DNA of 64,000 bases from Patescibacteria group bacterium (GCA_036835125.1 DAITMO010000001.1:319508-383507), one strand, 5' to 3'. Numbered from the stretch's first letter, positions 28,399 through 64,000 are shown. Numbers and translations: made by a program. The notes: generated by a model from the letters alone, not told the origin.

Positions 28399-28408
28399 AT
28401 TCAAAGTC

Positions 28409-29878: not shown

Positions 29879-29897
29879 AGCTGGTAACATTTAGTAT

Positions 29898-37100: not shown

Positions 37101-39208
<2,108 letters not shown>

Positions 39209-39209
<1 letters not shown>

Positions 39210-45340: not shown

Positions 45341-46333
45341 ATGTTTAGTCATATTATACTTGAAGCTATGCGTGAGGTTAAAGTACTTATAAAAAAACCT
45401 TTTGTTCAGTATTTTTTATTTTTTCTCATAGTAGCCACTTATGGAGTTCTCTTTTTGGAAGTAATTAAGTATCCTGGATTCTTCAAAAACTATTTTTTTG
45501 TTGATGCAAAGATCATATTTGCTGCTTCAATATTTCTTTTGACTTTTCTTAACACAAAAACAAAACTGATGCCTCTAGTGTTTAAGATTAACAATATTTT
45601 ATTAGTTGTTCTTACTGCATTATATTTGGGTCTATATCTGCTTGAAGGAGCAAACTATACGAATTATGTTCTTTCAAAATTTGGATTTCATTTAGATGGA
45701 CTAATTCTTCCTGTTCTTTTTGGATTTTTTATTTTTCTTGTTCAAAAGTTTAAAGACGAAGTAGTTAATTTTGGAAAGAAAAGTAAAGTATATCCAGTAT
45801 TTGTACTTTTGATAGTCTATTTTGTGGTTAGAAATTTGAGCTACTCTTTGGAAATGGGAGTTTCCAGGACTTCTTATATTCTTTTCCATTTAGGGAACAC
45901 TTATGACGAAAAGATGACATACCAGTGGGGAGTTTTTTATGACTTTATGTCATTTATCAAAAATAATACTCCGTTAGACTCAACAATTATTATTCCTCCA
46001 GAAGAAGGAGCTTGGCTTATGGGGACAGGGGAACCAAATTTTGTTAGAGCATTCCTTTATCCAAGAACAATTGTTCCAGAAACTCTAATTATTTCTGATG
46101 AGAAAATAGAATCTTATAATGATAATACTTACATTTTAATTTCTTGGGGGCAAGAAGCGTGTCGTCCAGATCCAGATTGTCATGGTTGGCCAAAACAAAA
46201 AATTAAAACTTTTGAAATAATTTATAAAAAACCTGATTCAAGTGACGTAGCTGAAATCAAAAAAGATACTATTTATGATCCTGATAGTAAAACGTATGTA
46301 TATGGTTTGATTAAACCGTTAGTAACTAATTAA
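45341..46333 (+). CDS. hypothetical polytopic membrane protein (cassette copy A, gene 1)
   Basis: N-terminal half has about 6 TM helices. C-terminal soluble domain YDEKMTYQWGVFYDFMSFIKNNTPLDSTIIIPP...AFLYPRTIV is homologous to 49228..50136. Confidence 0.45.
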   Translation: MFSHIILEAMREVKVLIKKPFVQYFLFFLIVATYGVLFLEVIKYPGFFKNYFFVDAKIIFAASIFLLTFLNTKTKLMPLVFKINNILLVVLTALYLGLYLLEGANYTNYVLSKFGFHLDGLILPVLFGFFIFLVQKFKDEVVNFGKKSKVYPVFVLLIVYFVVRNLSYSLEMGVSRTSYILFHLGNTYDEKMTYQWGVFYDFMSFIKNNTPLDSTIIIPPEEGAWLMGTGEPNFVRAFLYPRTIVPETLIISDEKIESYNDNTYILISWGQEACRPDPDCHGWPKQKIKTFEIIYKKPDSSDVAEIKKDTIYDPDSKTYVYGLIKPLVTN

Positions 46334-46336
46334 ATT

Positions 46337-47674
46337 ATGTTCCTATCTATTTTATTTATACTACTTATAACTTTTGGAATTGGTTTACCATTGGTTTTGT
46401 TGATTGCACCAAAGGCTAACACTTTTATAAAACTTGGACTTTCTTTTCCGATTGGGATTGGGATTTTTACACTTCTAATGTTTGGGGCAAACCTTTTAGG
46501 GTTAAGGTTCACATTACTAAATGAATTACTTCTTCTGTTGGTAATTTCTACCCCTTTGGTTTTGATTCAATTGAAAAAAATAAAGTTGTTGTTTAAGGAA
46601 ATAAAAAAGAGAATTAAAAACTCAAAGTTTGATTTGGCAGAAAAGATTATATTGGGAATATCGGCCTTTCTTATCGTTGTAAGTTTTATTAATACTTTTT
46701 ATTGGCCTGTTTACATGTGGGATTCTGTTGTTCTTTATGATTTTAGAGGACACGTGTTTGCTTCAACTGGTTTTATGAAAGATGTTTTTATTAATCCGTA
46801 TTATTATAGTTACCCGCTTTTAACTTCACTCACCCATACAATAGTTTATCTCTGTGGTGGAAAATATCCTCAGTTTATTTATTCGATCTTTTACTTGTCA
46901 CTAGGGATTTCTTTTTATGGGCTTTTGAGAGAATTTGTTTCTAGAAAAACGGGACTTATTTTTACATTGCTACTTTTAATGACTGGACCACTTTTTTATC
47001 ACTCACTATATTCCTACACAAACCTTACTTATACAGTTTATTTAAGTCTTGGAGCAATTCTAATATACCTTTGGGACAAAAAGGGGAATATTGGATACCT
47101 GATTTTGTCAGCTCTTATGGTAGGTCTCTCAACGTGGGTTAGGGCAACTGAGCCGTTTTGGTTGGCATCAATATTGATTGTTGTTGTGATATCAATTTTA
47201 AGAAAAAAGATATTAGGATTATTTATATATCCTTTAATTGTGGTCTTAATCCATGAAGTTTGGAGAAATTATCGAATCTTTTTGGCGAGTACTAGTAAAT
47301 CAACTGTAGCGGAAGTTGCTTCGTACACAGGAATATTGCCTTCAATATTTGATTTGGAAAGATGGAGACAAATAATTGTTTATTTATATAAATATACAAT
47401 TATTCCATGGGGATCCATATTCATTGCCTTTATTTTAGCCTTGGTTGTTATCATTTTTCAAAAGAAACTTAAAAAATTCTGGTTGGTATTTACTATTACA
47501 ATAGTTTTCTTAGCTGTCGTTGTTTTAGGGACACTATATTATAGTTTGACTTTTATTGACTGGTATCGAATTGGAGATGCAGTTGAACGTCTCTCTATGA
47601 TTTTTTATCCGTTGTTTGTTTATTCTTCGTTCTTGGTACTGTATGATTTAGGCAGTAAAGAAAAACATGATTAA
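46337..47674 (+). CDS. polytopic membrane protein, putative GT-C-like (cassette copy A, gene 2)
   Basis: YWPVYMWDSVVLYDFRGHVF...YPLLTSLTHTIVYLCGG..PQFIYSIFYLSLGISFYGL is homologous to 50138..51454. Confidence 0.45.
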   Translation: MFLSILFILLITFGIGLPLVLLIAPKANTFIKLGLSFPIGIGIFTLLMFGANLLGLRFTLLNELLLLLVISTPLVLIQLKKIKLLFKEIKKRIKNSKFDLAEKIILGISAFLIVVSFINTFYWPVYMWDSVVLYDFRGHVFASTGFMKDVFINPYYYSYPLLTSLTHTIVYLCGGKYPQFIYSIFYLSLGISFYGLLREFVSRKTGLIFTLLLLMTGPLFYHSLYSYTNLTYTVYLSLGAILIYLWDKKGNIGYLILSALMVGLSTWVRATEPFWLASILIVVVISILRKKILGLFIYPLIVVLIHEVWRNYRIFLASTSKSTVAEVASYTGILPSIFDLERWRQIIVYLYKYTIIPWGSIFIAFILALVVIIFQKKLKKFWLVFTITIVFLAVVVLGTLYYSLTFIDWYRIGDAVERLSMIFYPLFVYSSFLVLYDLGSKEKHD

Positions 47675-52239: not shown

Positions 52240-53175
52240 ATGTCTAACAAAACACCCATATTATTAATTATTTTCAATAGACCTGAAACAACACAAAGAG
52301 TGTTTGATATTGTAAAAGAATACAAGCCTAAAATGTTGTTTATTGCTGCAGATGGACCAAGGAAAAGTAAAATTGGTGAAGATGTAAAATGTAATGAAGC
52401 TAGAAAGATTACAGAAAATATTGATTGGCCCTGTAAGGTCAAAAGGTTGTATCAAAGAAACAATTTAGGTTGCGGGGTTGGTCCTTATAAGGCAATATCG
52501 TGGTTTTTTAAAAATGTCAAAGAAGGAATTATCTTGGAAGATGATTGTTTACCTGATATAAGTTTTTTTCAATTTTGTAGTGAAATGCTTGCCAAATATA
52601 GGAATATAGAAAGAATTATGCATATTGGTGGTAATAATTTTCAAAAACCATATCAACAAAATGCATACACATATTATTTCTCAAAGTATCCTCAAAGCTG
52701 GGGGTGGGCTACTTGGAGAAGGGCTTGGGAACATTATGATTTTGAGATGAAAGATTGGCCGATTGTCAAAAAGTTGAAAAAATTTGACATTGTTTTTAAT
52801 TCATATATGGAGAAAAAATATTGGCATACCATTTTTGATTTCAATTTCTATTTTAAAAATAAAGATATATGGGACTATCAATGGGTTTATGCGATTTGGA
52901 AAAATAGTGGAATGGCTATAATTCCAGATATAAATCTTGTTAAGAACATAGGTTTTAATAGTAACGCTACACATACAACAAATATATTGGCTATAGCAAA
53001 GAACCTGACTTTAAATAAAATGAGATTTCCACTAAAACACCCCAAGTCAATTTCAGTAGATAAGCTTAAAGATGCCTATTTATTCAAAAATGGTTATAAT
53101 AATAAATTAATCACAATGGTTTATATTTTCGTTGCACGCCATTATAAAATATGGCAATCTAGAAATCTTTTATGA
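52240..53175 (+). CDS. GT-A glycosyltransferase resembling GnT-I (GT13-like), EDD motif
   Basis: ILLIIFNRPETTQRVFDIV...LFIAADGPR and GIILEDDCLPDISFFQF align with the GnT-I (MGAT1) VVEDDLEVAPDFFEYF catalytic EDD region. Confidence 0.5.
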   Translation: MSNKTPILLIIFNRPETTQRVFDIVKEYKPKMLFIAADGPRKSKIGEDVKCNEARKITENIDWPCKVKRLYQRNNLGCGVGPYKAISWFFKNVKEGIILEDDCLPDISFFQFCSEMLAKYRNIERIMHIGGNNFQKPYQQNAYTYYFSKYPQSWGWATWRRAWEHYDFEMKDWPIVKKLKKFDIVFNSYMEKKYWHTIFDFNFYFKNKDIWDYQWVYAIWKNSGMAIIPDINLVKNIGFNSNATHTTNILAIAKNLTLNKMRFPLKHPKSISVDKLKDAYLFKNGYNNKLITMVYIFVARHYKIWQSRNLL

Positions 53176-53846
53176 TAAAAACAATAAAATTAAAATTTAT
53201 ATTTGCTAAACATAAGATTTATAAGATATTAAATAATTTGCACAGGATTATGGTGAACCCTGAAAAACAGGAACTGAGTTTATATTGGGATAAGGAGTTT
53301 GCAAAGATCCTTGATACATGGGGAGAGGATAATGTTTGGTTGGAAATTCAACTTCTTTTAATAAATTGCAAAGGTACAGTTTTAGATGTTGCATGTGGTA
53401 CTGGACGAACAATGGAAATATTGAACAAATATAAAAATATAAATGTCCATGGATTTGATATTTCTGAATTTTTAATTGAAAAAGCTAAAGAAAGGGGTAT
53501 AGACAAGAAAAAACTGAAAATTTGTGATGCCACAAAAACAAATTATCCAAATAACTTTTTTGACTACTCGTATTCAATAGGTTCTCTTGAACATTTTACA
53601 AAAAAAGGAATTTCTGGATTCCTAAATGAATGTAGCAGATATACTAAAATTGGTAGTTTCCACATGATTCCTGTTTCAAGAAGTGGAAAGAACGAAGGTT
53701 GGTTAAAAACAAAACAAAGTTTTTTTAATAATTCAGAAAATTGGTGGTTAAAATATTTCTCTTCAAATTTCAAAAATGTATATGTTATAAATTCGAAGTG
53801 GGAAGATGGCATTTCTATTGGTAAATGGTTTTTGTGTTATAAATGA
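53172..53846 (+). CDS. class I SAM-dependent methyltransferase
   Basis: Motif I VLDVACGTGRTMEIL. ATGA overlap with the upstream gene. Confidence 0.7.
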   Translation: MIKTIKLKFIFAKHKIYKILNNLHRIMVNPEKQELSLYWDKEFAKILDTWGEDNVWLEIQLLLINCKGTVLDVACGTGRTMEILNKYKNINVHGFDISEFLIEKAKERGIDKKKLKICDATKTNYPNNFFDYSYSIGSLEHFTKKGISGFLNECSRYTKIGSFHMIPVSRSGKNEGWLKTKQSFFNNSENWWLKYFSSNFKNVYVINSKWEDGISIGKWFLCYK

Positions 53847-53871
53847 AAATATAGTTAATTAATTTAAACTA

Positions 53872-54447
53872 ATGTTATTTAAATTACTAAAAAAAATAAT
53901 TATTAAGATAATTGGATATGTTAATTTAAGACAGATTGACAGAATTGGAACGAATTCCGTGGTAAATGGCACTCTCGATAAAAGGAATAGCAAGTCTAAA
54001 ATAGAAATAGGTAAAGATTGTTTGATTTCTGGTACCTTAGTTTGTGAGACGAAGAATTCTAGGATAATCATAGGAAACAATGTCTTTGTTGGTGGCGGAG
54101 CATTATTGGACTCTGCTATTAGAATTGAAATTCAGGATGATGTATTGGTTTCATATCAATGTCTGTTACAAGACAGCGACAATCACAACTTGGATTTTGA
54201 AATTCGTAAGAATGACTTGCGTGACTGGAGAAATAACAATAAACATAATTGGGATACAACTCCTATGAAGCCAATATTGATAAAAAGGGGAGCGTGGATT
54301 GGTGCGCGGGCAATAATATTAAAAGGTGTGACCATTGGTGAATGTGCTGTTGTGGGTGCAGGAAGTGTGGTGACGAAAGATGTGGAATCTTATACAGTAG
54401 TGGCTGGAAACCCAGCAAGATTTATCAAGAATATTAAACACACATGA
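53872..54447 (+). CDS. hexapeptide-repeat (LbH) acyl/acetyltransferase, likely sugar O/N-acetyltransferase
   Basis: Repeated [LIV]G...... hexapeptides (IIIGNNVFVGGGALLDSAIRIEIQDDVLV; IKRGAWIGARAIILKGVTIGECAVVGAGSVVTKDV) and VAGNPARFIK at the C-terminus. Confidence 0.75.
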   Translation: MLFKLLKKIIIKIIGYVNLRQIDRIGTNSVVNGTLDKRNSKSKIEIGKDCLISGTLVCETKNSRIIIGNNVFVGGGALLDSAIRIEIQDDVLVSYQCLLQDSDNHNLDFEIRKNDLRDWRNNNKHNWDTTPMKPILIKRGAWIGARAIILKGVTIGECAVVGAGSVVTKDVESYTVVAGNPARFIKNIKHT

Positions 54448-55193
54448 ATTGGGAAGAAACAATAGTTTGGCTTAGAGATCAAAAAAGCAAAAGAGATCTG
54501 GTTAAAGATTGTTTCTATGATGATCCAATAGTGTCAGCCGCTGATCGTTATTGGAAAAGCAGCGAATGGGATGCTGTTAAAAAATTTTTACCGAGGAAAA
54601 AAGGAAACATTTTAGATATTGGAGCAGGAAGGGGAATTACTTCATATGCTTTCGCCAAAGATGGCTGGAAAGTAACTGCAGTTGAACCTAATCCTGGAAA
54701 GATTGTTGGAATTGGTGCTATCAAAGAACTGTCAAAAAGCTCTGGTATCTCTATAACAGTGTGTAATAAGTGGGGAGAAAAATTACCTTTTGAAGATTTA
54801 TCATTTGATGTTGTTTTTGTTCGCGAAGTTCTCCACCACGCAAAGGATCTTGATAAGTTTTGTAAGGAAATGTGTAGGGTTCTCAAAAAGGGAGGGACAT
54901 TCATTGCAATAAGAGAACATGTTGTTAACAACGAAGCTGATCTCAGAATTTTTTTAAAAAAACATCCATTACATAAATTATATGGTGGTGAGAATGCTTA
55001 TAAGTTGAATGTTTATATTGATGCAATTGAAAAAGCAGGAGTAAGATTAACGAGTATATTGAACCCTCTTGAATCAGACATAAATTTATATCCTAGAAAA
55101 AATTCATTTATACCTGTGACAATAATGTCATTTATAGGCAGCCTAATAAACTATCCAGGTAGACTTTATTCGTTTATTGGTAGAAAAAAATGA
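54444..55193 (+). CDS. class I SAM-dependent methyltransferase
   Basis: Motif I ILDIGAGRGITSYAFAKDGWKVTAVEP and motif II/III VVFVREVLHH. Confidence 0.7.
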   Translation: MNWEETIVWLRDQKSKRDLVKDCFYDDPIVSAADRYWKSSEWDAVKKFLPRKKGNILDIGAGRGITSYAFAKDGWKVTAVEPNPGKIVGIGAIKELSKSSGISITVCNKWGEKLPFEDLSFDVVFVREVLHHAKDLDKFCKEMCRVLKKGGTFIAIREHVVNNEADLRIFLKKHPLHKLYGGENAYKLNVYIDAIEKAGVRLTSILNPLESDINLYPRKNSFIPVTIMSFIGSLINYPGRLYSFIGRKK

Positions 55194-56113
55194 TGGAAAA
55201 AACAATTATTGTGACTGGTGCTGCGGGTTTTTTGGGAAGGAACGTATCGAAATATTTTTCGAGTATGGGATGGAAAGTGTATGGAGTTGGCTTGGGTGAT
55301 TGGAGCTATACTTCTTATTCTGATTGGGGGTTGGAAAAGTGGGTAAAAACAGAAGTTAGTCTTGAAGTACTCAATTCACTGCAAATTGAACCAGATGTAA
55401 TTGTTCATTGTGCAGGCAAGGGGTCAGTTGGTTTTTCAGTCACAAACCCAGAAGAAGATTATAAAGCTAATGTTGATAGTCTTTTGCCTGCATTGGAATT
55501 TGTTAGAACAAAAAAACTAAAGACAAGAATCATTTATCCTTCAAGCGCTGCAGTTTATGGAGAAAAGGAAAACAAACCAATTAATGAAAGTGATATTCTT
55601 TCTCCAATCTCTCCCTATGGTTTTCATAAAAAGATGGCAGAAGAATTGTGTTACTCTTACTCAACTAATTTTGGTTTAAATATATCAGTCATAAGGTTTT
55701 TTTCACTATACGGTATAGGACTTCGTAAACAGCTTCTGTGGGAGGCATGTAAAAAAGTAGACATTGAAAAAGGTGACAAAGTGCAATTTTTTGGAACAGG
55801 AAAAGAAGTTAGGGATTGGCTAAACATTGAAGACGCCTCACGTTTAATATATGAGTTGTCAAAATCAAGAAATACTTTTGAGGTTGTTAATGGGGCAAGT
55901 GGAAAAGCAGTTAGAAACGAAGACATAATACAAATGCTTATAGATAGTTTTGGCAAGAAAATGTCTGTTGAGTTTAATGGCATGAATAGAAATGGAGATC
56001 CTAAAAACTACTGGGCTGATATATCCAAGGCGTTAGCTCTTGATTGGAAACCAAATATCGATTTAAGTGAAGGGATTAATGAATATGTTAAATACTATAA
56101 ATCCATAAAATGA
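55190..56113 (+). CDS. NAD-dependent epimerase/dehydratase (extended SDR), sugar-nucleotide modifying
   Basis: TIIVTGAAGFLGRNV glycine motif; catalytic SPYGFHKKMAEEL (YxxxK); 307 aa. Confidence 0.7.
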   Translation: MMEKTIIVTGAAGFLGRNVSKYFSSMGWKVYGVGLGDWSYTSYSDWGLEKWVKTEVSLEVLNSLQIEPDVIVHCAGKGSVGFSVTNPEEDYKANVDSLLPALEFVRTKKLKTRIIYPSSAAVYGEKENKPINESDILSPISPYGFHKKMAEELCYSYSTNFGLNISVIRFFSLYGIGLRKQLLWEACKKVDIEKGDKVQFFGTGKEVRDWLNIEDASRLIYELSKSRNTFEVVNGASGKAVRNEDIIQMLIDSFGKKMSVEFNGMNRNGDPKNYWADISKALALDWKPNIDLSEGINEYVKYYKSIK

Positions 56114-57273
56114 AAAGAGTAGGCTTTGTAGTCTTAACATCAAACAACTGGCTAGGAGGAATAAATTACTTCAAAAACCTTCTTTATGCAATTTCTAAAT
56201 TGAAGGACAAAAAGATCCAACCTGTGTTATTTTTTGGAACGAAAGAAAACAAAAATACCATAAAATATTTTAGTTCCTATGGAGTAATTGTCCAAAGTAG
56301 AATTCTAGATAGAGATAATCTATGGGGTTTAGTCAACGTTGCTTTAATGAGACTTTTAAATTGGAGTTTTTTATTAGAAAAACTCTTTACAGAAAATAAC
56401 ATAGATGTAGTTTCCCATTCTAGGTTTATTACAGGCAACAAAAAGATTAAAACAATCAATTGGATAGTAGATTTTCAGCACATTTATCTTCCCGAAATGT
56501 TTTCTGTAATTGAGAGAATGTACAGGAATATATTATTTGCTAGATATGCAAAGTATAGTGACATAGTAATTTTAAGTAGCAATAGTGCATATAAAGATTT
56601 CAAAAAAATCTATCCGAAATATGCAGATAAGGGTAAAATTCTGCATTTTGTATCCCAGATCTCGGAAAATATACACAAATGCAATGACATTGCCAAAGTA
56701 AAAAGGAAATATGGTTTTGAAAGAAAATACTTTTTTCTACCAAATCAATTATGGAGACATAAGAACCATATGGTAGTTTTAGAAGCAATAAATTTTTTAA
56801 AACAACAAGGAAAGGAAGTGTTGGTTGTTTGTACTGGCAATATGAATGATTATAGAAATTCGAAATATGTGAATCAAATTAAGGATTATATAAAAAGACA
56901 CAATCTACAAAACAATATTCTTTTTCTGGGATTAGTGGATAATAACGAATTTCTAACATTATTCAGACATTCTTTGGCAGTAATAAATCCTTCATTGTTT
57001 GAGGGTTGGAGTACAACAGTAGAAGAAGCAAAAAGTATGAATAAAGATATAATCCTTTCTGACATAGAAGTTCACAAAGAGCAAAATCCTTCAAATTCCA
57101 CATATTTTGACCCGAATAATGGAGAAGAACTTGCCGAAAAACTTTGGAACAAATGGCAAAAGAGTAAAGATAAAACCTATTACAAACTTGAAAAATTTGT
57201 TTTGAGAGACATTGCGCTTAAAATAGCCGATTTTGGGAAAAAATATCAAGAAATAATTCTTGATATAATGTAG
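56110..57273 (+). CDS. GT4 (GT-B) glycosyltransferase
   Basis: VINPSLFEGWSTTVEEAKSMNKDIILSD is the GT4 EX7E region. About 390 aa. Confidence 0.65.
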   Translation: MKRVGFVVLTSNNWLGGINYFKNLLYAISKLKDKKIQPVLFFGTKENKNTIKYFSSYGVIVQSRILDRDNLWGLVNVALMRLLNWSFLLEKLFTENNIDVVSHSRFITGNKKIKTINWIVDFQHIYLPEMFSVIERMYRNILFARYAKYSDIVILSSNSAYKDFKKIYPKYADKGKILHFVSQISENIHKCNDIAKVKRKYGFERKYFFLPNQLWRHKNHMVVLEAINFLKQQGKEVLVVCTGNMNDYRNSKYVNQIKDYIKRHNLQNNILFLGLVDNNEFLTLFRHSLAVINPSLFEGWSTTVEEAKSMNKDIILSDIEVHKEQNPSNSTYFDPNNGEELAEKLWNKWQKSKDKTYYKLEKFVLRDIALKIADFGKKYQEIILDIM

Positions 57274-57328: not shown

Positions 57329-58546
57329 ATGCTAAAAATTAAACGCAGTTCCATTATTGTAGTTGATCACCCTTCACAATTGTTGCTTGCCTGTAATCTT
57401 AGTACTTTCCTATCTAATGAATATGGATACAGGAGTAAGCTGCTGATATTCAAACATGAATATTGGAAATATTTCCATATAGGAAAATATAAAAAATTCT
57501 TTTCAAAAATATATTGGTTTGATAGATGCTGGTACCCTCCGCCTCATATGAATATTTTCAAACAACTTGTTTCATCTATTTTATTGCTACCACAGTTGTT
57601 TTATATAAAAATTAAATTGATTTCTATTGGTGTGAAAAAAAGAGACATAATTTTTGGATTATCTAATTGTACTTTTTTAGAAGATTTGGTTATTAGTACT
57701 TTCAGAGATTCGAAAAAAATTGCAATGATGTTTTCCTTGGATTATAACTTTTGGTTAAACAGACCGAATAGCGATAAATTTGGAACGAATTTATCAATAG
57801 AAATTACACAATTGATAAGACACTTATTTGGTTTGCCAAAAACACTTTTTCTATATAATAAAAAAGTAAGTAAGCTTGGAGACGGTGATTATTATTTTGG
57901 ATATGATGACAAAATAAACAAAATATTTGACGCGCTTCTGTTGATATATGATGGTCATAAGATTACCAATAAAAATCTTCAAGACAAAAATGTGTATACG
58001 GCCACCTTTCCACATTTAATCAATATGAATTTTTCTGAATCGACTAAAAAGAAAATAATTTTCTTAGGCTCTGATTTTTTAATAGGCAACAACGCTGATC
58101 AAAAAGTATTTATTTATGAAATTAACCAATATTTGGATTATCTGAGGCGTTTGTATTCAAATAAGTATATATTGGTTTACAAACCACATCCAAGAGAAAC
58201 TCTAGAAAGCACTTTGTTGAACTTAAAAGGTTTTGTGAAAATAAATGATAAAAGACCAGCGGAAATATTTTTTATAGAAAATAAGAAAAATATTAAATCA
58301 GTTTTTTCAGTGGTGTCGACTGCTATTTTATCTTCATATAGTATTGGGATTGATGGTTATTTATTTCTTAATCTATTTCCATTTGATGAAGTCCGATCAT
58401 CTATTTACAATAAATTGTTTTCAAACTTGCCGCGGTCCTGTTTTATAGATAATCTGGAGGCACCTCCCAAACCTGTTATAAAGAAGAATGGCTCAAATAT
58501 ACCTAGTTTTAGCGAATCACTGCATAAATTGCTTAAAAACATATGA
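57329..58546 (+). CDS. hypothetical GT-B-like transferase with HP motif (sialyl-/Kdo-transferase-like or capsule-synthesis family)
   Basis: It has no GT2/GT4 signature. ILVYKPHPRE contains the His-Pro dyad conserved in CMP-sugar-utilising sialyl/Kdo transferases. It lies directly upstream of a CMP-sugar synthetase-like gene. Length 405 aa. Confidence 0.3.
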   Translation: MLKIKRSSIIVVDHPSQLLLACNLSTFLSNEYGYRSKLLIFKHEYWKYFHIGKYKKFFSKIYWFDRCWYPPPHMNIFKQLVSSILLLPQLFYIKIKLISIGVKKRDIIFGLSNCTFLEDLVISTFRDSKKIAMMFSLDYNFWLNRPNSDKFGTNLSIEITQLIRHLFGLPKTLFLYNKKVSKLGDGDYYFGYDDKINKIFDALLLIYDGHKITNKNLQDKNVYTATFPHLINMNFSESTKKKIIFLGSDFLIGNNADQKVFIYEINQYLDYLRRLYSNKYILVYKPHPRETLESTLLNLKGFVKINDKRPAEIFFIENKKNIKSVFSVVSTAILSSYSIGIDGYLFLNLFPFDEVRSSIYNKLFSNLPRSCFIDNLEAPPKPVIKKNGSNIPSFSESLHKLLKNI

Positions 58547-59421
58547 AACAGACAAACAAAAATAAAATAGAAGAAACACTTTTTAAGTTGTCAATTTGTA
58601 GCCCGAGAACAATATATGAATATTATCCCAGGACTCGAGATAGGAGTGATGTTAAAGTGATGAGATGTAAGCGTTGTGGTGTAATCTTTCTTTCCCGCAC
58701 AGATCATATATCAGGTAAGCATTATGAACGGATGAAAAAAAATGACTATTGGTCGATCGCCGAGAAAAAACAAATGGATTTAGATGACAAAATACGGGCA
58801 ACAAGATATAAGTCTGTGATTTTTGGAAAAAAATGGCTTGATGTTGGGACTGGAATGGGAGGCATTATGAATCTGTTAAGAGGTGTTTCAAGAGAAGTGA
58901 CTGGAGTAGAACCCCAAAATGATATTCGCAGAGATCTAAGAAAAAAAGGTTTTGAGGTGTTTGCAGGAATAGATGAAGTAAAGGAAAATAACTTTGACAT
59001 AGTAACCATGTTCCATGTTCTTGAACATTTAGATGATCCTATCTCCTTTATTCAAAAAGTCCATAGAAAAATTGTCAAAAATGGAAAATTGGTTATTGAA
59101 GTACCGCATGCAAATGATTTTTTGATAAAAACTCTTAATTTAAAATCATTTAAAAACTTCACTTTTTGGAGCGAACACCTAATTTTACATACAAGACAAA
59201 GTCTAACGCTTTTCTTAAAAAAAGCTGGTTTCAAAAAAGTTAAGGTTTATGGTTTCCAGAGATATGGTTTGATGAATCATGTCTATTGGTTGGTCAAAGG
59301 GAAACCAGGGGGTCAAATTTTCTGGAGTAAATATAATTCAAAATTTATTGATAAAATATATTCGTATTTACTTGACAAAATTGACCGTACAGATACACTA
59401 GTTGCTATCGCAGAAAAATAA
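58543..59421 (+). CDS. class I SAM-dependent methyltransferase with N-terminal zinc-ribbon-like Cys pair
   Basis: MRCKRCGVIFLS (CxxC) followed by motif I WLDVGTGMGGIMNLL and motif II IVTMFHVLEHL. Confidence 0.7.
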   Translation: MKQTNKNKIEETLFKLSICSPRTIYEYYPRTRDRSDVKVMRCKRCGVIFLSRTDHISGKHYERMKKNDYWSIAEKKQMDLDDKIRATRYKSVIFGKKWLDVGTGMGGIMNLLRGVSREVTGVEPQNDIRRDLRKKGFEVFAGIDEVKENNFDIVTMFHVLEHLDDPISFIQKVHRKIVKNGKLVIEVPHANDFLIKTLNLKSFKNFTFWSEHLILHTRQSLTLFLKKAGFKKVKVYGFQRYGLMNHVYWLVKGKPGGQIFWSKYNSKFIDKIYSYLLDKIDRTDTLVAIAEK

Positions 59422-59432
59422 CCAATAGATTT

Positions 59433-60218
59433 ATGAGAAAAAAAAGTGCAATCTTTATTACTGTTAGAACCACATCTTCTCGACTACCCCAAAAAGCATT
59501 GCTTAAGATACGTAATCAGAGAGTGATTGAACATGTAATTGATCGGGCCAAACTTTGTAAAAATGCTAATCTGGTAGTTCTTTGTACAACAACAAATAAA
59601 GAAGATGATGTTCTAGTAGATATTGCAAAGAGAAAGAAAATAAAGTCATTTCGTGGATCAGAGAAAGATAAACTTGTTAGATGGCGGGATGCTGCACGAG
59701 AATTTAAGATTGACTATTTTGCAACATTTGACGGCGATGATTTTTTTTGTTCTCCAATTTTAGTCGATTTATCAATTCTTCAAATGTCCAAAAATCCTTG
59801 TGATATTATTCAGGCCCCACAGGGATTGATTTGTGGTTCTTTTACGTTCTGCATCTCTGTTAAAGCGCTTGAAAAAGTATGTGAAATAAAAGATTCCAAT
59901 GAAACAGAAATGATGTGGGGATATTTTACAGAAACTGGATTATTTAGTGTAAATAATCTACAAGTTAGAAACCCTCTTTATTTTAATTCTAAAATTAGAA
60001 TGACATTGGATTATGCTGAAGATTTTGCATTCTTCTATAGAATTTATGACCGGATGCATATGAAAAAAAACAACGTGGATTTAATAAAAATTATAAAAAT
60101 GCTAAATAAAAATCCAGATATTCCAAAAATAAATATTTTTCGTCAAACGCAGTTCTTGCAAAACCAAAAGAATAAGACTAATATTTTGCTTAAGAAGAAT
60201 ATAAATTATGAAAATTGA
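59433..60218 (+). CDS. cytidylyltransferase of the CMP-ulosonic acid synthetase / SpsF family (CTP_transf_3)
   Basis: AIFITVRTTSSRLPQKALLKI matches the I.AR..S.RLP.K.L N-terminal signature of SpsF/NeuA/KdsB-type cytidylyltransferases. Length 261 aa. Confidence 0.6.
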   Translation: MRKKSAIFITVRTTSSRLPQKALLKIRNQRVIEHVIDRAKLCKNANLVVLCTTTNKEDDVLVDIAKRKKIKSFRGSEKDKLVRWRDAAREFKIDYFATFDGDDFFCSPILVDLSILQMSKNPCDIIQAPQGLICGSFTFCISVKALEKVCEIKDSNETEMMWGYFTETGLFSVNNLQVRNPLYFNSKIRMTLDYAEDFAFFYRIYDRMHMKKNNVDLIKIIKMLNKNPDIPKINIFRQTQFLQNQKNKTNILLKKNINYEN

Positions 60219-61443
60219 TAAAGGATGGCGCTTCAGAGGGAACGAGTTGAAGTATATAAAACAAGTGTTGGACGCAGGGATGGGTAGTGGAACGACTGGG
60301 AGTTTCAATATGAGAGTCGAACAGGCGTTTGCTAAGAAGTTTGGAGTTAAATATGCCATTACTTCAAATTCAGGCACTTCAACTTTACATCAAGCATTAA
60401 TGGCGTTTGGAGTTTGTCCAGGTGATGAAGTTTTAGTTCCTGCTTTAAGTCCAATAATGTGCGGTATTGCTCCCGTCTTTGCAGGTGCTAAACCTGTTTT
60501 TGTTGATGTTGATAAAGATACGTTTTTAATGGATCCAAAAGATATTGAAAAGAAGATTACTAAGAAAACAAAAGTAATTATGGCAGTTAATTTATATGGA
60601 CAGATGTGCGATATGAGTTCAATAATGGCAATTGCGCGAAAATATAATTTGTATGTTCTTGAGGATTGTGCAGAGTGTTATTTGGCGAGGGATAATAAGG
60701 GACGATTAGCTGGCACAGTCGGACATATTGGTAGTTTCAGTATGCAAACTACAAAGCATATTACTTCAGGTGACGGTGGAATACTTGTTACAAACAATGA
60801 AAAATTGGCTGAAAGAATGAGGAAATTTGGTGGTTTGGGATTCAAACACCTTCGTGCAGATAGAACTAAAATTAAAAAGAATAGGGATCTATTTCAAGAT
60901 CCAAATTATCAAAGACATGATAATTTGGGGTGGAATTATAGATTATCAGAATTAGGAGCCTCTGTAGCGCTTGCACAAATAGAAAAACTAGATTGGTTAA
61001 TAAACAAAAGGCAACAAATGGCAAGGAAGTACTTAGAAGCATTAGATGGCTGTAGTTGGATTACGCCGCAATTTCTACCCAAGGATTATATTCATTCTTA
61101 CTATACTTTTGTTGCCCGATATGATGGATTAGAAAAAAGGGGTGTAAGTTGGTTTGATTTTAGAAAGAAATATATTGAGTTTGGTGGAGATGGAATTTAT
61201 TCTGCTTGGGTTCTAATTTACAATGAACCAATAATGAAGTTGATGAGTGAAGAAGGACGTTTCTCTAAAGATATAGATGGACAAGCTACTGCTTATAAGG
61301 GTTTCTTGAAAAATAATTGTCACTGTCCAAATGCTGAATTGTTACAACCTAAAATTTTGCAATTTACAACAAACCAGAACACCATAACAGAAATGAACAA
61401 ACAAAGGGACGTTCTAGGAAAAACAATAAAATATTTTGATTAG
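60208..61443 (+). CDS. DegT/DnrJ/EryC1/StrS-family PLP-dependent sugar aminotransferase
   Basis: FGVKYAITSNSGTSTLHQALMAFGV...; the lysine region SFSMQTTKHITSGDGG matches the SF...K.i..GeGG PLP-lysine motif. Confidence 0.8.
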   Translation: MKIDKGWRFRGNELKYIKQVLDAGMGSGTTGSFNMRVEQAFAKKFGVKYAITSNSGTSTLHQALMAFGVCPGDEVLVPALSPIMCGIAPVFAGAKPVFVDVDKDTFLMDPKDIEKKITKKTKVIMAVNLYGQMCDMSSIMAIARKYNLYVLEDCAECYLARDNKGRLAGTVGHIGSFSMQTTKHITSGDGGILVTNNEKLAERMRKFGGLGFKHLRADRTKIKKNRDLFQDPNYQRHDNLGWNYRLSELGASVALAQIEKLDWLINKRQQMARKYLEALDGCSWITPQFLPKDYIHSYYTFVARYDGLEKRGVSWFDFRKKYIEFGGDGIYSAWVLIYNEPIMKLMSEEGRFSKDIDGQATAYKGFLKNNCHCPNAELLQPKILQFTTNQNTITEMNKQRDVLGKTIKYFD

Positions 61444-61460
61444 CTTCCATTACTTTTTCA

Positions 61461-62543
61461 ATGTCCAATAATAGTAATTCCGAAAATCTGTTTTTGCCAA
61501 ATAATCATAGTAATTATAAGACCAAGTGGAGAAATGTATCACCTTCGGTTTGGCGAAAGGTTGAACAAATATCATCCAAATATTATGACCTCGGATATAT
61601 AAAGGATATCAAACAAAATGATGAATGGGAGAAAATGAGTAATAACTTTAAAATATCTTCAATAAAGGATGGGATACTTATTAGTAGTTTGTTAAGAAAG
61701 AATATTAATATTAAGAATATAAGAAAAATTAATTCAATTGAGAAGATATCTTCATTCTTAAGATTAAAGGGTGTTGTCACACCCAAGATAAAACCAACAA
61801 AAACAGGAGAAAATTGTTGTCATTCAGATAGTCATTACTGGCAGTTGTTTGAATTCATTCCTGGAGATCATTATCGTGGAACCGAATCTCAACTAAAGAA
61901 TGTTGCCATGGAAATTTCTAAAATGCATACGGTGTTTTCTGAAATTCCTTTTGAGGTAGAAAAAAAAGCAAAGATAGCATGGAAAAAAAACGAATGGGAA
62001 GACATGTTCGAAAGATCTAAGTTTGGAGGAACAGAATTGGATAATAAAATTTATAAAGAAAAAGAATACATTACTGATACTATTAATTGGGTTGGCAATA
62101 ATTATGAACCGACTATCCAAACTTTTCAGGCAATACATGGAGATTTGCATCCCCAAAATACACTGTACCAAGGAAACAAGCTTGTTGGCATTCTTGATTT
62201 CGATGACACAAAAGTAAGTGAGCGCATTAGAGATTTTGGAAATGCCCTTCATCGTTTTGTAAGACAATACGTAGTTTTTCAAAACAAACCCTGGAAAGAA
62301 GAACTGCCCAAAGGAATATTTATGTTTATAAATTCTTATTCTAAGATAATAAATATTAATGAAAAGGAGTTACGTACAACTGAGGTTTTGATGAAGGATG
62401 AGTTATTGCGAAAATTATTTGTTGGTTTAAAGCAGTACTATGTAGATGGAGATGACAGGCATATTTCTCATGGGGAATTTGAAAAAAAGATAAACCTACT
62501 GAAAGAAACGAGGTTTTTTGGTAAAATTTTAAAATCATACTAA
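61461..62543 (+). CDS. protein-kinase-like fold phosphotransferase (APH/choline-kinase family)
   Basis: Brenner motif IHGDLHPQNTL and the downstream ILDFDD metal-binding Asp. Confidence 0.65.
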   Translation: MSNNSNSENLFLPNNHSNYKTKWRNVSPSVWRKVEQISSKYYDLGYIKDIKQNDEWEKMSNNFKISSIKDGILISSLLRKNINIKNIRKINSIEKISSFLRLKGVVTPKIKPTKTGENCCHSDSHYWQLFEFIPGDHYRGTESQLKNVAMEISKMHTVFSEIPFEVEKKAKIAWKKNEWEDMFERSKFGGTELDNKIYKEKEYITDTINWVGNNYEPTIQTFQAIHGDLHPQNTLYQGNKLVGILDFDDTKVSERIRDFGNALHRFVRQYVVFQNKPWKEELPKGIFMFINSYSKIININEKELRTTEVLMKDELLRKLFVGLKQYYVDGDDRHISHGEFEKKINLLKETRFFGKILKSY

Positions 62544-62601
62544 TTAATAGAAAATATGAGGTTGTGTTACAGTGTTAAAGATGTAAACTAACGGAGATAA
62601 T

Positions 62602-63153
62602 ATGATAAATAAAAAATTGCCTCTAAATGAACGATTGAAAAAAATTCGATTGATTGCCTCTGACGTGGATGGAGTGCTAACAGATGGAAAAATAAGATTG
62701 GTTGGTGAGGAGGAAATGAAGGTATTTAATGGTAAAGAGGCTATGAAGATAGATATGATAATCAGAAGTGGAATTCCTGTAGTTTGGATTACTGGACGTA
62801 AATGTGCTGCTGTTATAAAAAGAGGAAAAGAATTGAATATTCGTTTAATTTTCAAAAAAGAATTACAAGCAAAAAAATTATTATTGAATGAAGATTTTGA
62901 AAAAAATTACAAAGTTTCCCCCGAACAAGTTTTATATGTTGGTGATGATTTCAACGACTTGTTTTTAATGTCATATTTTGGTGTGTCTGCAACTCCACAT
63001 GATGGATCTGCTCAAAATATCAAGATTGCTGATATTGTAACCAATAAAAATGGCGGCGATGGAGTATTAGCTGAAGTCATTGAAATGGTCATGAAGGCTC
63101 AGGGAACATGGAATAAATATCTTAAGGAATATACTGATCACTTTCTTGAATAA
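62602..63153 (+). CDS. HAD-IIIA phosphatase of the KdsC family (ulosonic-acid phosphate phosphatase-like)
   Basis: DVDGVLTDGKI (DxDGVxTDG motif I), VLYVGDDFNDL (motif III) and 183 aa length match KdsC and Neu5Ac/KDN-9-P phosphatases. Confidence 0.7.
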   Translation: MINKKLPLNERLKKIRLIASDVDGVLTDGKIRLVGEEEMKVFNGKEAMKIDMIIRSGIPVVWITGRKCAAVIKRGKELNIRLIFKKELQAKKLLLNEDFEKNYKVSPEQVLYVGDDFNDLFLMSYFGVSATPHDGSAQNIKIADIVTNKNGGDGVLAEVIEMVMKAQGTWNKYLKEYTDHFLE

Positions 63154-63156
63154 AAA

Positions 63157-63996
63157 ATGAAAACAAAAAATAATAGTTATTTGTTTGATCTTTTTAATCT
63201 CAAAAACCAGGTTGTTATACTAACTGGGGGATTGGGAAAATTGGGCACCCAATACGCTGAAGCTCTAATAAAAGCAAATGCTCGTGTTGCAATTTTTGAT
63301 GTTTCAGATGAAATAAATGAACGACTTCGTTCACTGGCAAAAGATTTTCCTCTGATGTTCTTGAAAGTTGATGTTACCAACGAAAAAGAAGTTAAAAAAG
63401 CATTAGAGAAAGTTATCAGTAGGTGGCAGGTTCCGACCATATTGATTAACAATGCCGGATGGAAAGCATCTCCAAGTGTTTCTTTAGGTGCCGGTTTGCC
63501 CTTTGAGGACTATTCAGTTGCCTTGTGGAATGAGGTGTTTGATAAGAATTTAACCTCAGCGATGATTTGTTCGAAAGTTTTTGGAGCTAGAATTATTAAG
63601 GAAAATAAAAAAGGTGTGATTGTCAATATTGCTTCGGTGTATGCTCTTGTCTCTCCTGACCAAAGAATTTATAAATACAGAGAAAAAAGCGGTATGGGTA
63701 AGTTTGTTAAAGATGCCTCTTATAGCGCTTCAAAAGCGGCTTTAATAGCATTAACTAGAGATTTGAGTGTCCAATGGGCAGACAAAGGAATCCGTGTCAA
63801 TGCTATCGCTCCAGGGGGAGTATTAAGCATAAACGGTGATAAACAATTTATAAAAGCATATAAAAACAGGGTGCCGTTGAATAGAATGGCTAATGTCGAT
63901 GAGATGAACGGTGCAGTGATCTTTCTTGCCTCAACCGCCTCATCTTATATGACAGGTACGACTTTGGTTGTGGATGGAGGTCTAGTTGCCTGGTAA
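63157..63996 (+). CDS. SDR-family oxidoreductase
   Basis: [16 protein letters not shown] glycine motif; YSASKAAL catalytic YxxxK; 279 aa. Confidence 0.75.
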
Positions 63997-64000
63997 TATT

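Follow-up and report, generated by a model that had tools for sequence, protein, structure and literature searches.

Gene families and conserved linkage suggest a CMP-activated amino ulosonic acid-like sugar pathway with an HP-motif transferase in a Patescibacteria group genome

A run of genes at the end of a 64,000-nucleotide stretch from a Patescibacteria group bacterium (the window) raises the question of whether it encodes the synthesis of a CMP-activated, sialic-acid-like amino sugar and, if so, by which route. An earlier note, made from the sequence alone, had described seven contiguous genes and assigned each to a family. All seven were confirmed as co-directional, plus-strand open reading frames within 57329-63996, and the Pfam and NCBIfam models used for family assignment agreed with these calls. 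The claim that the genes mostly overlap by 4 bp did not hold, as the successive spacings are −4, +11, −11, +17, +58, and +3 nt, with a 4-bp overlap at one of six junctions. It is the genes directly upstream (53172-57273) that more typically overlap in this way.

The earlier note had also anticipated a KdsA/NeuB-type synthase beyond position 64000. We extended the window using metagenome contig L001, which is 100% identical over 5,065 bp, and found a NeuB-type synthase directly downstream (L001:5095-7011, which would be 64030-65946), beginning 33 nt after the stop codon of the final window gene. Its 638-residue product consists of NeuB and SAF domains fused to an MJ1311/endonuclease-IV-like TIM barrel. 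A hexapeptide acetyltransferase follows (L001:7026-7706, which would be 65961-66641; Hexapep, 52 bits); it resembles the phn_thr-fam, CatB, and Vat models below their cut-offs, and no homologue was found in the most closely related locus, L050. The seven window genes are the front part of a longer operon and sit within a very large island of ~74 kb for glycan assembly. The NeuB domain is intact and scores best with the Neu5Ac synthase model (329 bits versus 224 for PseI). In this family, a near-invariant Ser replaces Arg314, the residue essential in the ManNAc site of the N. meningitidis enzyme.

The TIM barrel is likewise intact. It has motifs H-x-P, HPG, ENMP, FDxxHA, and HxxD in common with MJ1311 (PDB 3wqo), a "D-tagatose 3-epimerase-like protein" from Methanocaldococcus jannaschii, and keeps seven of nine endonuclease-IV-type ligand positions relative to it; the other two are lost where the D-E-H of MJ1311 is an invariant G-E-G in the fusion family. 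Unlike this barrel, MJ1311 is not fused to NeuB. All eight multi-domain proteins scanned from the barrel's subfamily are NeuB fusions, and stand-alone genes directly follow a NeuB+SAF gene in both cases with informative context. The fused barrel serves the synthase as a dedicated partner. Its superfamily includes a phosphodiesterase as well as IolE and IolI, and two roles appear about equally probable: it may supply the aldose as an aldose-ketose isomerase/epimerase, or act as a metallo-phosphoesterase on the product while this is still phosphorylated.

The cytidylyltransferase (59433-60218; 261 aa) is a genuine CTP_transf_3 member (PF02348, 52 bits versus a cut-off of 22.6), as had been claimed, and not an unrelated NTP-transferase. 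It contains the SSRLPQK and DGDD motifs, and its profile matches the cytidylyltransferase structure 6oew over the full length at 106 bits, KdsB/KpsU at 36-49 bits, and NeuA at 20 bits. Its best solved relative, 6oew, is presumably a Leptospira interrogans entry. Matches to KdsB models are weak, N-terminal, and far below the cut-offs; assignment as a KdsB, NeuA, or PseF orthologue was rejected. In protein P0083, the NeuB fusion synthase also carries a domain homologous to this enzyme (37% identity). Presumably, the enzyme is a CMP-ulosonate synthetase. The adjoining DegT/DnrJ/EryC1-family PLP aminotransferase (60208-61443; 411 aa; PF01041, 261 bits) carries the PLP lysine motif TTKHIT, and its homologues (84% identical in L050, ~60% in a group of loci termed variant 1) always lie directly 3′ of such a cytidylyltransferase gene. 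Among PDB entries it scores 197 bits with 7b0m, 180 with perosamine synthetase, 143 with KdnA (5k8b), and 98 with NtdA; the PseC and LegC models reach ~200 bits, below their cut-offs, and scyllo-inosose aminotransferases ~160. Judged by these scores, its best relatives among solved structures are NDP-sugar aminotransferases, which counts against the route proposed below.

The last window gene (63157-63996; 279 aa) encodes a classical SDR oxidoreductase (adh_short_C2, 165 bits) with TGxxxGxG, NNAG, and YxxxK present. Its best NCBIfam models, all below cut-off, are sugar-acid dehydrogenases (gluconate 5-DH, mannonate oxidoreductase, and KduD). In L052 and L053, its closest homologues (58-62% identity) come after the kinase/phosphatase genes and are followed by an aldehyde dehydrogenase, not an aminotransferase, which hints at an aldehyde intermediate. 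Other variants have a class III aminotransferase in place of DegT.

Between aminotransferase and SDR lie a kinase (61461-62543; 360 aa) and a phosphatase (62602-63153; 183 aa). An HMM search upheld the assignment of the APH/ELK-fold small-molecule kinase to the APH family (PF01636, 48.5 bits); both HGDLHPQN and DFD are preserved. Foldseek matches to its AlphaFold2 model (pLDDT 92) are homoserine kinase II, YtaA, amicoumacin kinase, APH(9), and NahK, and choline and ethanolamine kinases are matched as well; this fold match is generic, a point against the proposed route, and the enzyme is presumably a sugar kinase. The phosphatase belongs to the KdsC subfamily of HAD enzymes (TIGR01670, 126 bits versus a cut-off of 107; DVDGVLTDG and GDDFND present). 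It scores 114 with the KdsC equivalog (cut-off 208), 88 with the KDN-9-P phosphatase model NF058599 (cut-off 180), and ~80-89 bits with KdsC entries in the PDB. That this enzyme and the cytidylyltransferase fall under every equivalog cut-off also counts against the proposed route. The phosphatase is 77% identical in L050; in L053 it shares 48% identity with the kinase-adjacent HAD and only 25% with the synthase-adjacent one. A HAD phosphatase lies within 2.5 kb in nine of ten loci with a kinase homologue. Among fused-synthase loci, the same holds for 6/6 with the kinase versus 0/16 without it (one-sided hypergeometric p ~1.3e-5, phylogenetic non-independence ignored). The phosphatase tracks the kinase and not the synthase, and the two are gained and lost together.

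The NeuB–TIM fusion and its partners were found in more than 25 loci, mostly from Patescibacteria, with others from Nitrospirota, Planctomycetota, and one Nanoarchaeia MAG. L050 repeats the window's gene set in almost identical order (42-84% protein identity) but lacks a classical SDR, an absence that weighs against the proposed route. With parts of the cassette in dozens of further loci, this is no chance juxtaposition. The order cytidylyltransferase, DegT, fusion recurs in the window, L050, and seven variant-1 loci. Across variants, four functions recur: the NeuB synthase, CTP_transf_3, an aminotransferase of the DegT or class III type, and an oxidoreductase, either SDR or GFO_IDH_MocA, which one close relative lacks. 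An HP-motif transferase belongs to the recurring set wherever one was seen. Variant-1 loci keep the synthase (~60% identical) without kinase or phosphatase, which counts against the proposed route, as the substrate of the synthase may or may not be phosphorylated.

Taken with the downstream NeuB gene, the polysialyltransferase-family match of the first gene (see below), and the true CTP_transf_3, these data support the earlier proposal of a CMP-activated amino ulosonic acid-like pathway with an HP-motif transferase. Going by protein families and gene linkage, we consider it likely that the genes encode a pathway to a CMP-activated amino-ulosonate derived from NeuB, together with a transferase. 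The window genes, synthase, and acetyltransferase probably form one cassette that builds an amino NeuB-type 3-deoxy-2-ulosonic (sialic-acid-like) sugar, activates it with CMP, and displays it on the surface via the HP-motif transferase. The general kind of pathway is a known one and its route is not; family membership and gene linkage are its basis, from which we infer the order of steps and the identity of the sugar. In our proposal, the kinase would phosphorylate a free sugar, the NeuB domain would condense the aldose phosphate with PEP, and the phosphatase would then strip the phosphate, so that kinase and phosphatase would serve as "adapter" enzymes flanking the synthase step, as in the animal Neu5Ac-9-P route. 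The SDR would oxidize a hydroxyl to a carbonyl, preferably the freed terminal CH2OH to an aldehyde, for transamination by the DegT enzyme in parallel with the KdsC, KdnB, KdnA, and KdsB route to Kdo8N. The acetyltransferase and methyltransferase would next modify the sugar, the cytidylyltransferase would form the CMP-sugar, and the first gene product would transfer or polymerize it. This specific post-condensation, Kdo8N-like order is put forward tentatively. The sugar itself may be Kdo8N-like, Leg/Pse-like, or Neu-like.

Amination might instead precede condensation, in a kanosamine-like scheme modeled on NtdC and NtdA, which act on glucose 6-phosphate. The kinase would then give a hexose 6-phosphate, which oxidoreductase and aminotransferase would turn into an amino-hexose 6-phosphate to be acetylated, condensed with PEP, dephosphorylated, and CMP-activated, yielding a neuraminic-acid-type (5-amino) or 7-amino nonulosonate. 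NtdC belongs to the GFO_IDH_MocA family, and L051 has such an oxidoreductase in place of the SDR, adjoining a class-III aminotransferase, a HAD, and a kinase. The detectable relationship to NtdA, the preference for the Neu5Ac-synthase model, the polysialyltransferase family of the first gene, and the acetyltransferase directly after the synthase favor this scheme too, as does the endogenous Neu5Ac of Leptospira, which has a similar gene trio (PMC3438082). We nevertheless find the scheme and its products unlikely, given the Ser in place of Arg314 and the aldehyde dehydrogenase paired with the nearest SDR homologues, a partner suited to an aldehyde rather than a ring ketone. Moreover, KdsC-family enzymes act on ulosonate phosphates, and we know of no precedent for SDR oxidation at C2 of an aldose phosphate.

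A conventional legionaminic/pseudaminic-type route would have the aminotransferase act on an NDP-4-keto-6-deoxy sugar, with dehydratase and NDP-sugar hydrolase encoded elsewhere or the endonuclease-IV-like domain as hydrolase. The PseC, LegC, and GDP-perosamine synthetase scores, the phosphodiesterase in the barrel's superfamily, and extended SDR genes upstream (55190-56113 and 38274-39209) fit this route, as do the GDP-mannose 4,6-dehydratase-like genes that L013 and L019 carry next to the synthase or cluster (read from translations, not HMMs), which also count against our proposal. Yet the parts of the ~74 kb that were covered, namely ORFs and the Pfam labels precomputed for the 10-kb extension, revealed no Epimerase_2/NeuC, LegG, PseG, or clear PseB/LegB; the Pfam scan covered all but five large membrane-protein ORFs (18754-22069, 28292-32911) and ORFs <150 aa upstream of 50 kb. 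Every equivalog score of the aminotransferase is far below cut-off, sister clusters exchange DegT for a class-III enzyme (to our knowledge not used on NDP-4-keto sugars), and the strict kinase–phosphatase pairing would go unexplained, making this route quite improbable. Still more remote is LicA/LicC-like CDP activation of a phospho-alcohol or phospho-sugar, the alternative raised in the earlier note, or an aminocyclitol built by SDR, DegT, kinase, and phosphatase, with NeuB in a separate pathway. The matches to choline and ethanolamine kinases and scyllo-inosose aminotransferases, and IolE and IolI in the barrel's superfamily, speak for it. It is disfavored by a cytidylyltransferase that is CTP_transf_3, not LicC-type, by the fusion of a homologous domain to the synthase in P0083, by the absence of the kinase from most loci keeping cytidylyltransferase, aminotransferase, and synthase, and by the physical fusion of the TIM domain to an intact NeuB domain.

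For the Kdo8N-like order, the chemical precedent is Shewanella oneidensis (KdsA, KdsC, KdnB, KdnA, and KdsB), where a phosphatase exposes the terminal hydroxyl for oxidation to the aldehyde by a dehydrogenase, after which a DegT transaminase forms the amine and a CTP_transf_3 enzyme the CMP-sugar. The KdsC-subfamily phosphatase and the KdnA match agree with it. The Shewanella synthase is, however, KdsA-type and its alcohol dehydrogenase iron-dependent, our aminotransferase is nearer perosamine synthetases than KdnA, and the kinase and fused barrel have no counterpart there. The animal Neu5Ac and Bacteroides thetaiotaomicron KDN routes run from a sugar 6-phosphate through NANS/KDN-9-P synthase and a 9-phosphate phosphatase, KdsC-family in Bacteroides, to a CMP synthetase. 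They resemble the cassette in pairing a NeuB+SAF synthase with a dedicated phosphatase, a likeness that extends to the joint gain and loss of kinase and phosphatase. The cassette differs in its APH-fold rather than ROK/GNE-type kinase, a phosphatase below the KDN-9-P cut-off, the extra oxidoreductase/aminotransferase pair, and the fused barrel.

The closest described relative is a NulO sub-cluster of Leptospira interrogans (YP_002102/YP_002103/YP_002104), comprising a CMP-NulO synthetase, an aminotransferase, and a NulO synthase that bears an "endonuclease-like" domain at its C-terminus (Ricaldi et al. 2012, PMC3438082). By inference only, the trio was interpreted as an animal-like route to Neu5Ac with phosphorylated intermediates, the fused domain, homologous to phosphodiester-cleaving endonucleases, being the phosphatase; a kinase and a phosphatase were also proposed as "adapters" flanking the synthase step (PMC3438082). 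The trio shares the cytidylyltransferase, aminotransferase, and fused-NeuB logic of the cassette, and its proteins are putative orthologues of the corresponding cassette proteins. The window adds an APH-fold kinase, separate KdsC phosphatase, SDR, methyltransferase, acetyltransferase, and polysialyltransferase-like gene, in a Patescibacteria-like genome without nearby legionaminic acid genes.

The methyltransferase (58543-59421; 292 aa; class I SAM-dependent; Methyltransf_23, 76 bits) presumably acts in O- or N-methylation of the sugar. Its homologues in L050 and L019 (41-60% identity) lie beside the cytidylyltransferase; L020 has a 45% homologue away from it, and in L053 a separate methyltransferase adjoins it. 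The first gene (57329-58546; 405 aa) encodes a GT-B-like transferase with an HP motif, a GT38-like member of the bacterial polysialyltransferase family and presumably a CMP-ulosonate transferase or polymerase. The suggested kinship to CMP-sugar transferases was borne out by PF07388 (alpha-2,8-polysialyltransferase; E=3.6e-10, 40.3 bits, cut-off 23.3), which matches residues 193-338, spanning the HP-motif region; PDB sequences gave no match. Like GT38 polysialyltransferases (NeuS/SiaD) and other HP-motif sialyltransferases in its nucleotide-binding half, the protein has the HP motif (KPHPRE at 285) and the downstream S-T motif (VVST at 328), with FLGSDF at 245. It differs in covering only positions 168-305 of the 316 in the profile, in an unrelated N-terminal half, in showing no clear D/E-D/E-G motif, and in a donor sugar that is probably not Neu5Ac. 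In nine related loci, the transferase adjoining the NeuB fusion shares 28-38% identity with its C-terminal half. Sister loci have HP-motif or Capsule_synth transferases of their own in the position of this gene: variant-1 loci (a relative of this half with QPHPNE), one variant-2 locus (a Capsule_synth protein, PF05159), and the unfused group (KLHPNE, no Pfam match). Close homologues of the window protein number only 3 in 5.8e9 proteins.

Seven open reading frames close the window on the forward strand, all at the positions the earlier note gave for them, and Pfam and NCBIfam bore out the family it had assigned to each. Its description of the run as mostly 4-bp overlapping, the sole inaccuracy, does not hold, as the junctions measure −4, +11, −11, +17, +58, and +3 nt. 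The HP-motif transferase proposed at 57329–58546 (+) matched the PF07388 polysialyltransferase family above the gathering score (40.3 bits, cut-off 23.3, residues 193–338). It is followed by a class I methyltransferase (58543–59421), a CTP_transf_3 cytidylyltransferase (59433–60218; PF02348, 52 bits vs 22.6), a DegT aminotransferase with its PLP lysine present (60208–61443), an APH-fold kinase whose catalytic core (HGDLHPQN/DFD) is intact (61461–62543), a KdsC-subfamily phosphatase (62602–63153; TIGR01670, 126 bits vs 107), and a classical SDR that scores best with models of sugar-acid dehydrogenases (63157–63996). An exact-protein look-up with the SDR returned six contigs, with the shared stretch 100% identical in five and differing by a single base in one. 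The metagenome contig L001, which matches the window end, reaches 10 kb beyond it. A synthase had been predicted past position 64000, and it is present on L001, starting 33 nt after the SDR stop codon: a 638-aa protein with NeuB, SAF, and AP_endonuc_2 domains (L001:5095–7011, equivalent to window 64030–65946). A hexapeptide acetyltransferase follows (L001:7026–7706), and downstream lie GT-C-type membrane proteins, then a GT2, a methyltransferase, and a flippase.

This gene complement most probably specifies a CMP-activated, NeuB-derived amino-ulosonate pathway together with an HP-motif transferase, and the amino-ulosonate interpretation offered at first reading is thereby supported. We compared 43 genome loci, plus 5 more reached via kinase homologues. 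The recurring set comprises NeuB, an oxidoreductase (SDR, or GFO_IDH_MocA in locus L051), an aminotransferase (DegT or class III), and CTP_transf_3, accompanied by HP-motif transferases where visible; it is what an amino-ulosonate pathway needs. The alternative of a LicA/LicC-type activation was rejected, as the cytidylyltransferase belongs to CTP_transf_3 rather than to the LicC-type NTP_transferases and most related loci do without the kinase. Aminocyclitol synthesis as the function of the cassette was likewise considered and rejected.

The synthase keeps the metal-binding histidines of NeuB, as a PEP-condensing synthase of this family should. It scores below the cut-offs for both the Neu5Ac synthase equivalog TIGR03569 (NeuB_NnaB; 329 bits, cut-off 399.65) and the PseI equivalog (224 bits, cut-off 340). 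The KRPGNG motif of Neisseria meningitidis NeuB aligns with KSPGKG in the new family, placing a near-invariant Ser at Arg314, the position mutated in structures 4ipi (R314A) and 4ipj (R314K); because of this substitution, the protein is predicted not to be a canonical ManNAc-type synthase. Of 45 family members, at least 90% keep Ser318.

The C-terminal TIM barrel of the fusion has the PF01261 (AP_endonuc_2) fold with E-D-H-E metal ligands, as in ketose 3-epimerases and xylose isomerases, and its profile found a single significant match in the PDB, MJ1311 of Methanocaldococcus jannaschii. Family motifs are kept at H415 (VHGPE), H468 (VHPG), E506 (ENMP), D544 and H547 (FDTSHA), H574 (HISD), and E612 (PEIW). 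Where MJ1311 has D-E-H, the NeuB-fused barrels have an invariant G-E-G. In our reading of the sequences, the barrel appears to retain seven of the nine established endonuclease-IV metal ligands; the trinuclear-zinc residues of MJ1311 were placed by alignment. Searched exhaustively with HMMER, the barrel by itself returned 858 representatives of 50%-identity clusters at E ≤ 0.001, of which 166 reached E ≤ 1e-30. Every multi-domain barrel protein scanned (8/8, some of them fragments) was linked to NeuB, among them a CBS-NeuB-SAF-barrel form of ~750 aa; this arrangement is common among more distant relatives (P0165, P0173, P0184, and P0222, about 740–770 aa). Both stand-alone barrels with informative context lie directly 3′ of a NeuB+SAF gene, a count that leaves aside the stand-alone barrel P0148, whose contigs are too short. 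The barrel is a partner dedicated to this clade of synthases.

Two activities fit the distribution of this partner. KdsC genes beside the synthase are confined to loci that lack the barrel (7 unfused kinase-less loci vs 0/16 fused kinase-less loci), which fits a phosphoesterase. In other relatives the place of the barrel is taken by a SIS_2 isomerase (L054) or a NeuB-fused cupin (L052), which fits an isomerase that supplies the aldose. The cupin protein is a second type of NeuB fusion with a faint lyxose-isomerase match (L052:14617–16170), beside a HAD and a CTP_transf_3 gene. At L054 a short NeuB adjoins a GmhA-like SIS_2 protein that, speculatively, supplies heptose phosphate. It seems that NeuB is repeatedly paired with a sugar isomerase of one kind or another.

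Among the tailoring enzymes, the cytidylyltransferase is tied to the synthase by adjacency, which is conserved across loci, and by fusion, as protein P0083 carries a domain of this type (37% identity) in front of the NeuB fusion. A profile of the window protein and its relatives matched PDB entry 6oew over its full length (106 bits), the N-terminal half of KdsB/KpsU (36–49 bits), and NeuA barely (20 bits), and there was no NeuA or PseF match in NCBIfam at E < 0.01. The enzyme belongs to CTP_transf_3 and is orthologous to no characterized synthetase. The aminotransferase is closest to the "sugar aminotransferase" 7b0m (197 bits), ahead of perosamine synthetases (180), KdnA (5k8b; 143), and NtdA (98), and lies below the equivalog cut-offs for PseC (207 bits vs 423.5) and the LegC family (200 vs 420). 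The transferase carries its HP motif, KPHPRE, at residue 285, inside the stretch matched by PF07388, and so shares family and motif with the GT38 polysialyltransferases. The match covers profile positions 168–305 of 316, and the D/E-D/E-G motif is not clear by eye. A phmmer search of the PDB gave no match for this protein, and a large homologue search returned only 3 proteins.

The model of the kinase (pLDDT 92) resembles homoserine kinase II, YtaA, amicoumacin kinase, APH(9), and NahK, all generic APH/ELK neighbors. A HAD phosphatase lies within 2.5 kb in 6/6 fused-synthase loci with the kinase and in 0/16 without it (adequate flanks), a pairing with a hypergeometric p of ~1.3e-5, uncorrected for relatedness. 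The window phosphatase shares 48% identity with the HAD beside the kinase in L053 and only 25% with the one beside the synthase at the same locus, and it falls short of the KdsC equivalog NF007019 (114 vs 208) and of the KDN-9-P phosphatase equivalog. The phosphatase therefore tracks the kinase, not the synthase. Such paired gain and loss would be the pattern expected of "adapter" enzymes acting before and after the synthase.

Full-length homologues of the synthase (54–63% identity) come nearly all from Patescibacteria MAGs, with more distant ones in Nitrospirota, Thermodesulfovibrionales, Planctomycetota, and one Nanoarchaeia MAG. The last of these, on a contig labelled Candidatus Nanoarchaeia (DPANN archaea), is a complete NeuB-SAF-TIM fusion of 46% identity directly after a second NeuB-like ORF (L027:10785–12773); provided that this contig was binned correctly, the fusion would span two domains of life. 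In one variant of the locus (7 Patescibacteria loci), the NeuB fusion is accompanied by a cytidylyltransferase of the window type (~50% identity), a DegT (~60%), a short SDR, and an HP-motif transferase related to the C-terminal half of the window protein. A second variant, from MAGs labelled Uhrbacteria, Kaiserbacteria, Magasanikiibacteriota, and others, has a methyltransferase and SDR of the window types, a different CTP_transf_3, a class-III aminotransferase, and the NeuB fusion; four of its loci (L019–L022) add a HAD phosphatase and a kinase of the window type, and the transferase of L019 belongs to the Capsule_synth family. The window joins the cytidylyltransferase/DegT pair of the first variant to the methyltransferase, kinase, phosphatase, and SDR of the second. 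Its closest relative, L050, encodes the methyltransferase, cytidylyltransferase, DegT (84%), kinase, KdsC (77%), and fusion (78%), with no classical SDR at that locus.

A further, unfused group (L032–L049, e.g., L033:4721–10876 and L041:2400–8925) is present in MAGs of Gemmatimonadales, Ignavibacteria, and Bacteroidota, with partial versions in Planctomycetota. Its genes encode a KLHPNE-motif transferase-like protein, CTP_transf_3, a split transketolase with separate N and C subunits, a class-III aminotransferase, an SDR, in some cases KdsC, and a short NeuB that lacks the SAF domain. In L052:6923–13298 and L053:6894–13883, NeuB, the kinase, (KdsC), and an SDR of the window type precede genes for an aldehyde dehydrogenase and for a full-length transketolase/DXS-like enzyme, and an aminotransferase is lacking; the product there could be a dicarboxylic (ulosaric) or chain-extended sugar. 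For the transketolase variants, a two-carbon DXS/transketolase extension of a terminal aldehyde is speculation on our part. In some variant loci the synthase, or else the methyltransferase/cytidylyltransferase pair, has as its neighbor a gene that reads in translation as GDP-mannose 4,6-dehydratase-like (L013:11911–12936 and L019:3293–4360); none lies near the window cassette.

We infer the order of the steps, and therefore the structure of the sugar as well. Behind the nearest homologues of the SDR (58–62% identity) come an aldehyde dehydrogenase and a transketolase/DXS-like enzyme in place of an aminotransferase, and many variants use a class-III aminotransferase. Together these features hint at an aldehyde intermediate formed, as in Kdo8N synthesis, by oxidizing a primary alcohol. 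The Kdo8N pathway (KdsA-KdsC-KdnB-KdnA-KdsB) is the nearest proven mechanistic analogue for the amination and shares a KdsC-type phosphatase (TIGR01670 subfamily) with the cassette. It uses a KdsA-type synthase and the KdnB-type iron-dependent alcohol dehydrogenase, whereas the cassette has a NeuB-type synthase and a classical SDR; for this reason the cassette is not a member of the pathway, though it may work in the same way. Terminal amination after condensation is the order that we tentatively prefer, at something short of an even chance. Under that order the DegT enzyme might act as a KdnA-type transaminase on a terminal aldehyde of the free ulosonate; its score is 143 bits with KdnA but 180 with perosamine synthetase, and the aldehyde dehydrogenase and class-III alternates lend indirect support. 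Amination ahead of condensation is unlikely.

A conventional NDP-sugar route whose missing genes lie elsewhere is still less probable. Epimerase_2/NeuC, PseG, a clear PseB/LegB, and LegG were all absent from the window ORFs scanned and from the Pfam labels of the 10-kb extension (~74 kb), a scan that covered all but five large ORFs (18754–22069 and 28292–32911) and small upstream ORFs. Two extended SDRs (55190–56113 and 38274–39209) gave generic Epimerase-family matches. Compared with the canonical Neu5Ac pathway (NeuC-NeuB-NeuA), the cassette is without NeuC, the synthase equivalog score and Arg314, and a NeuA-type synthetase; compared with the legionaminic and pseudaminic pathways, it is without the dehydratase, the hydrolase, and the LegC/PseC or LegI/PseI equivalogs in the scanned parts. 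We regard as possible, if doubtful, a route independent of nucleotide sugars to a chemically undescribed ulosonic acid, polymerized by the polysialyltransferase-like enzyme. Such a sugar might be, for example, a terminally aminated, N-acetylated, methylated acid of the KDN/Neu type or of another chain length, made by a NeuB synthase lacking the canonical Arg314 that would be fed or finished by its dedicated MJ1311/endonuclease-IV-like barrel.

To our knowledge, the biochemically characterized bacterial routes to sialic-acid-like sugars all start from nucleotide sugars, with the exception of KDN in Bacteroides. The NeuB–TIM-barrel partnership, shared by the cassette and more than 160 clusters at 50% identity, would point to a widespread alternative that relies on kinase/phosphatase "adapters" together with a fused metallo-TIM barrel and is concentrated in Patescibacteria. 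We know of almost nothing on the surface chemistry of these bacteria, though they live attached to hosts. Sialic-acid-like sugars shape cell–cell recognition, phage susceptibility, and immune evasion, and the proposed route, if true, would mean that ultrasmall Patescibacteria, as well as some DPANN archaea, have a coat resembling polysialic acid. If the product is a new amino-ulosonate, a small sugar family gains a member and chemo-enzymatic synthesis gains enzymes.

The closest described system is the Leptospira trio. Ricaldi et al. showed endogenous Neu5Ac in Leptospira and put forward an animal-like route that would pass through a phosphorylated intermediate (PMC3438082), a route that is itself a proposal. 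The window cassette looks like a fuller version of that system, with an explicit kinase and phosphatase, where we infer the orthology, and it offers a concrete handle on the 2012 hypothesis of an "animal-like" sialic acid route. In full-text literature searches this paper was the only relevant one, and none turned up for the cluster in Patescibacteria, for a NeuB-TIM fusion under such terms, or for the transketolase variant.

The whole window and the 10 kb past its end make up one very large surface-glycan island around the cassette (window 1–57273 and L001:7740–15061), with at least 10 GT2/GT4 genes, at least 8 GT-C-type membrane glycosyltransferases (PMT_2, GT87/PIG-M-like, PIG-V-like, YfhO, and PTPS_related), two Polysacc_synt flippases, several methyltransferases, and an MFS transporter. 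No Pfam match was obtained for several island ORFs of 330–620 aa, e.g., 15309–17042, 25093–26955 (−), 40997–42433, 45341–47674, and 52240–53175. Two Fic/DOC-domain genes run on the opposite strand, one at the island edge (210–1304, −) and one inside it (44317–45294, −), the latter with a RhuM-family N-terminal region and accompanied by a GT2 gene (43099–44304, −). Between 48000 and 58000, a segment spanning the transferase gene and those just upstream of it, G+C is 0.28–0.30, compared with 0.33–0.37 elsewhere, and this segment could be more recently acquired or faster-evolving.
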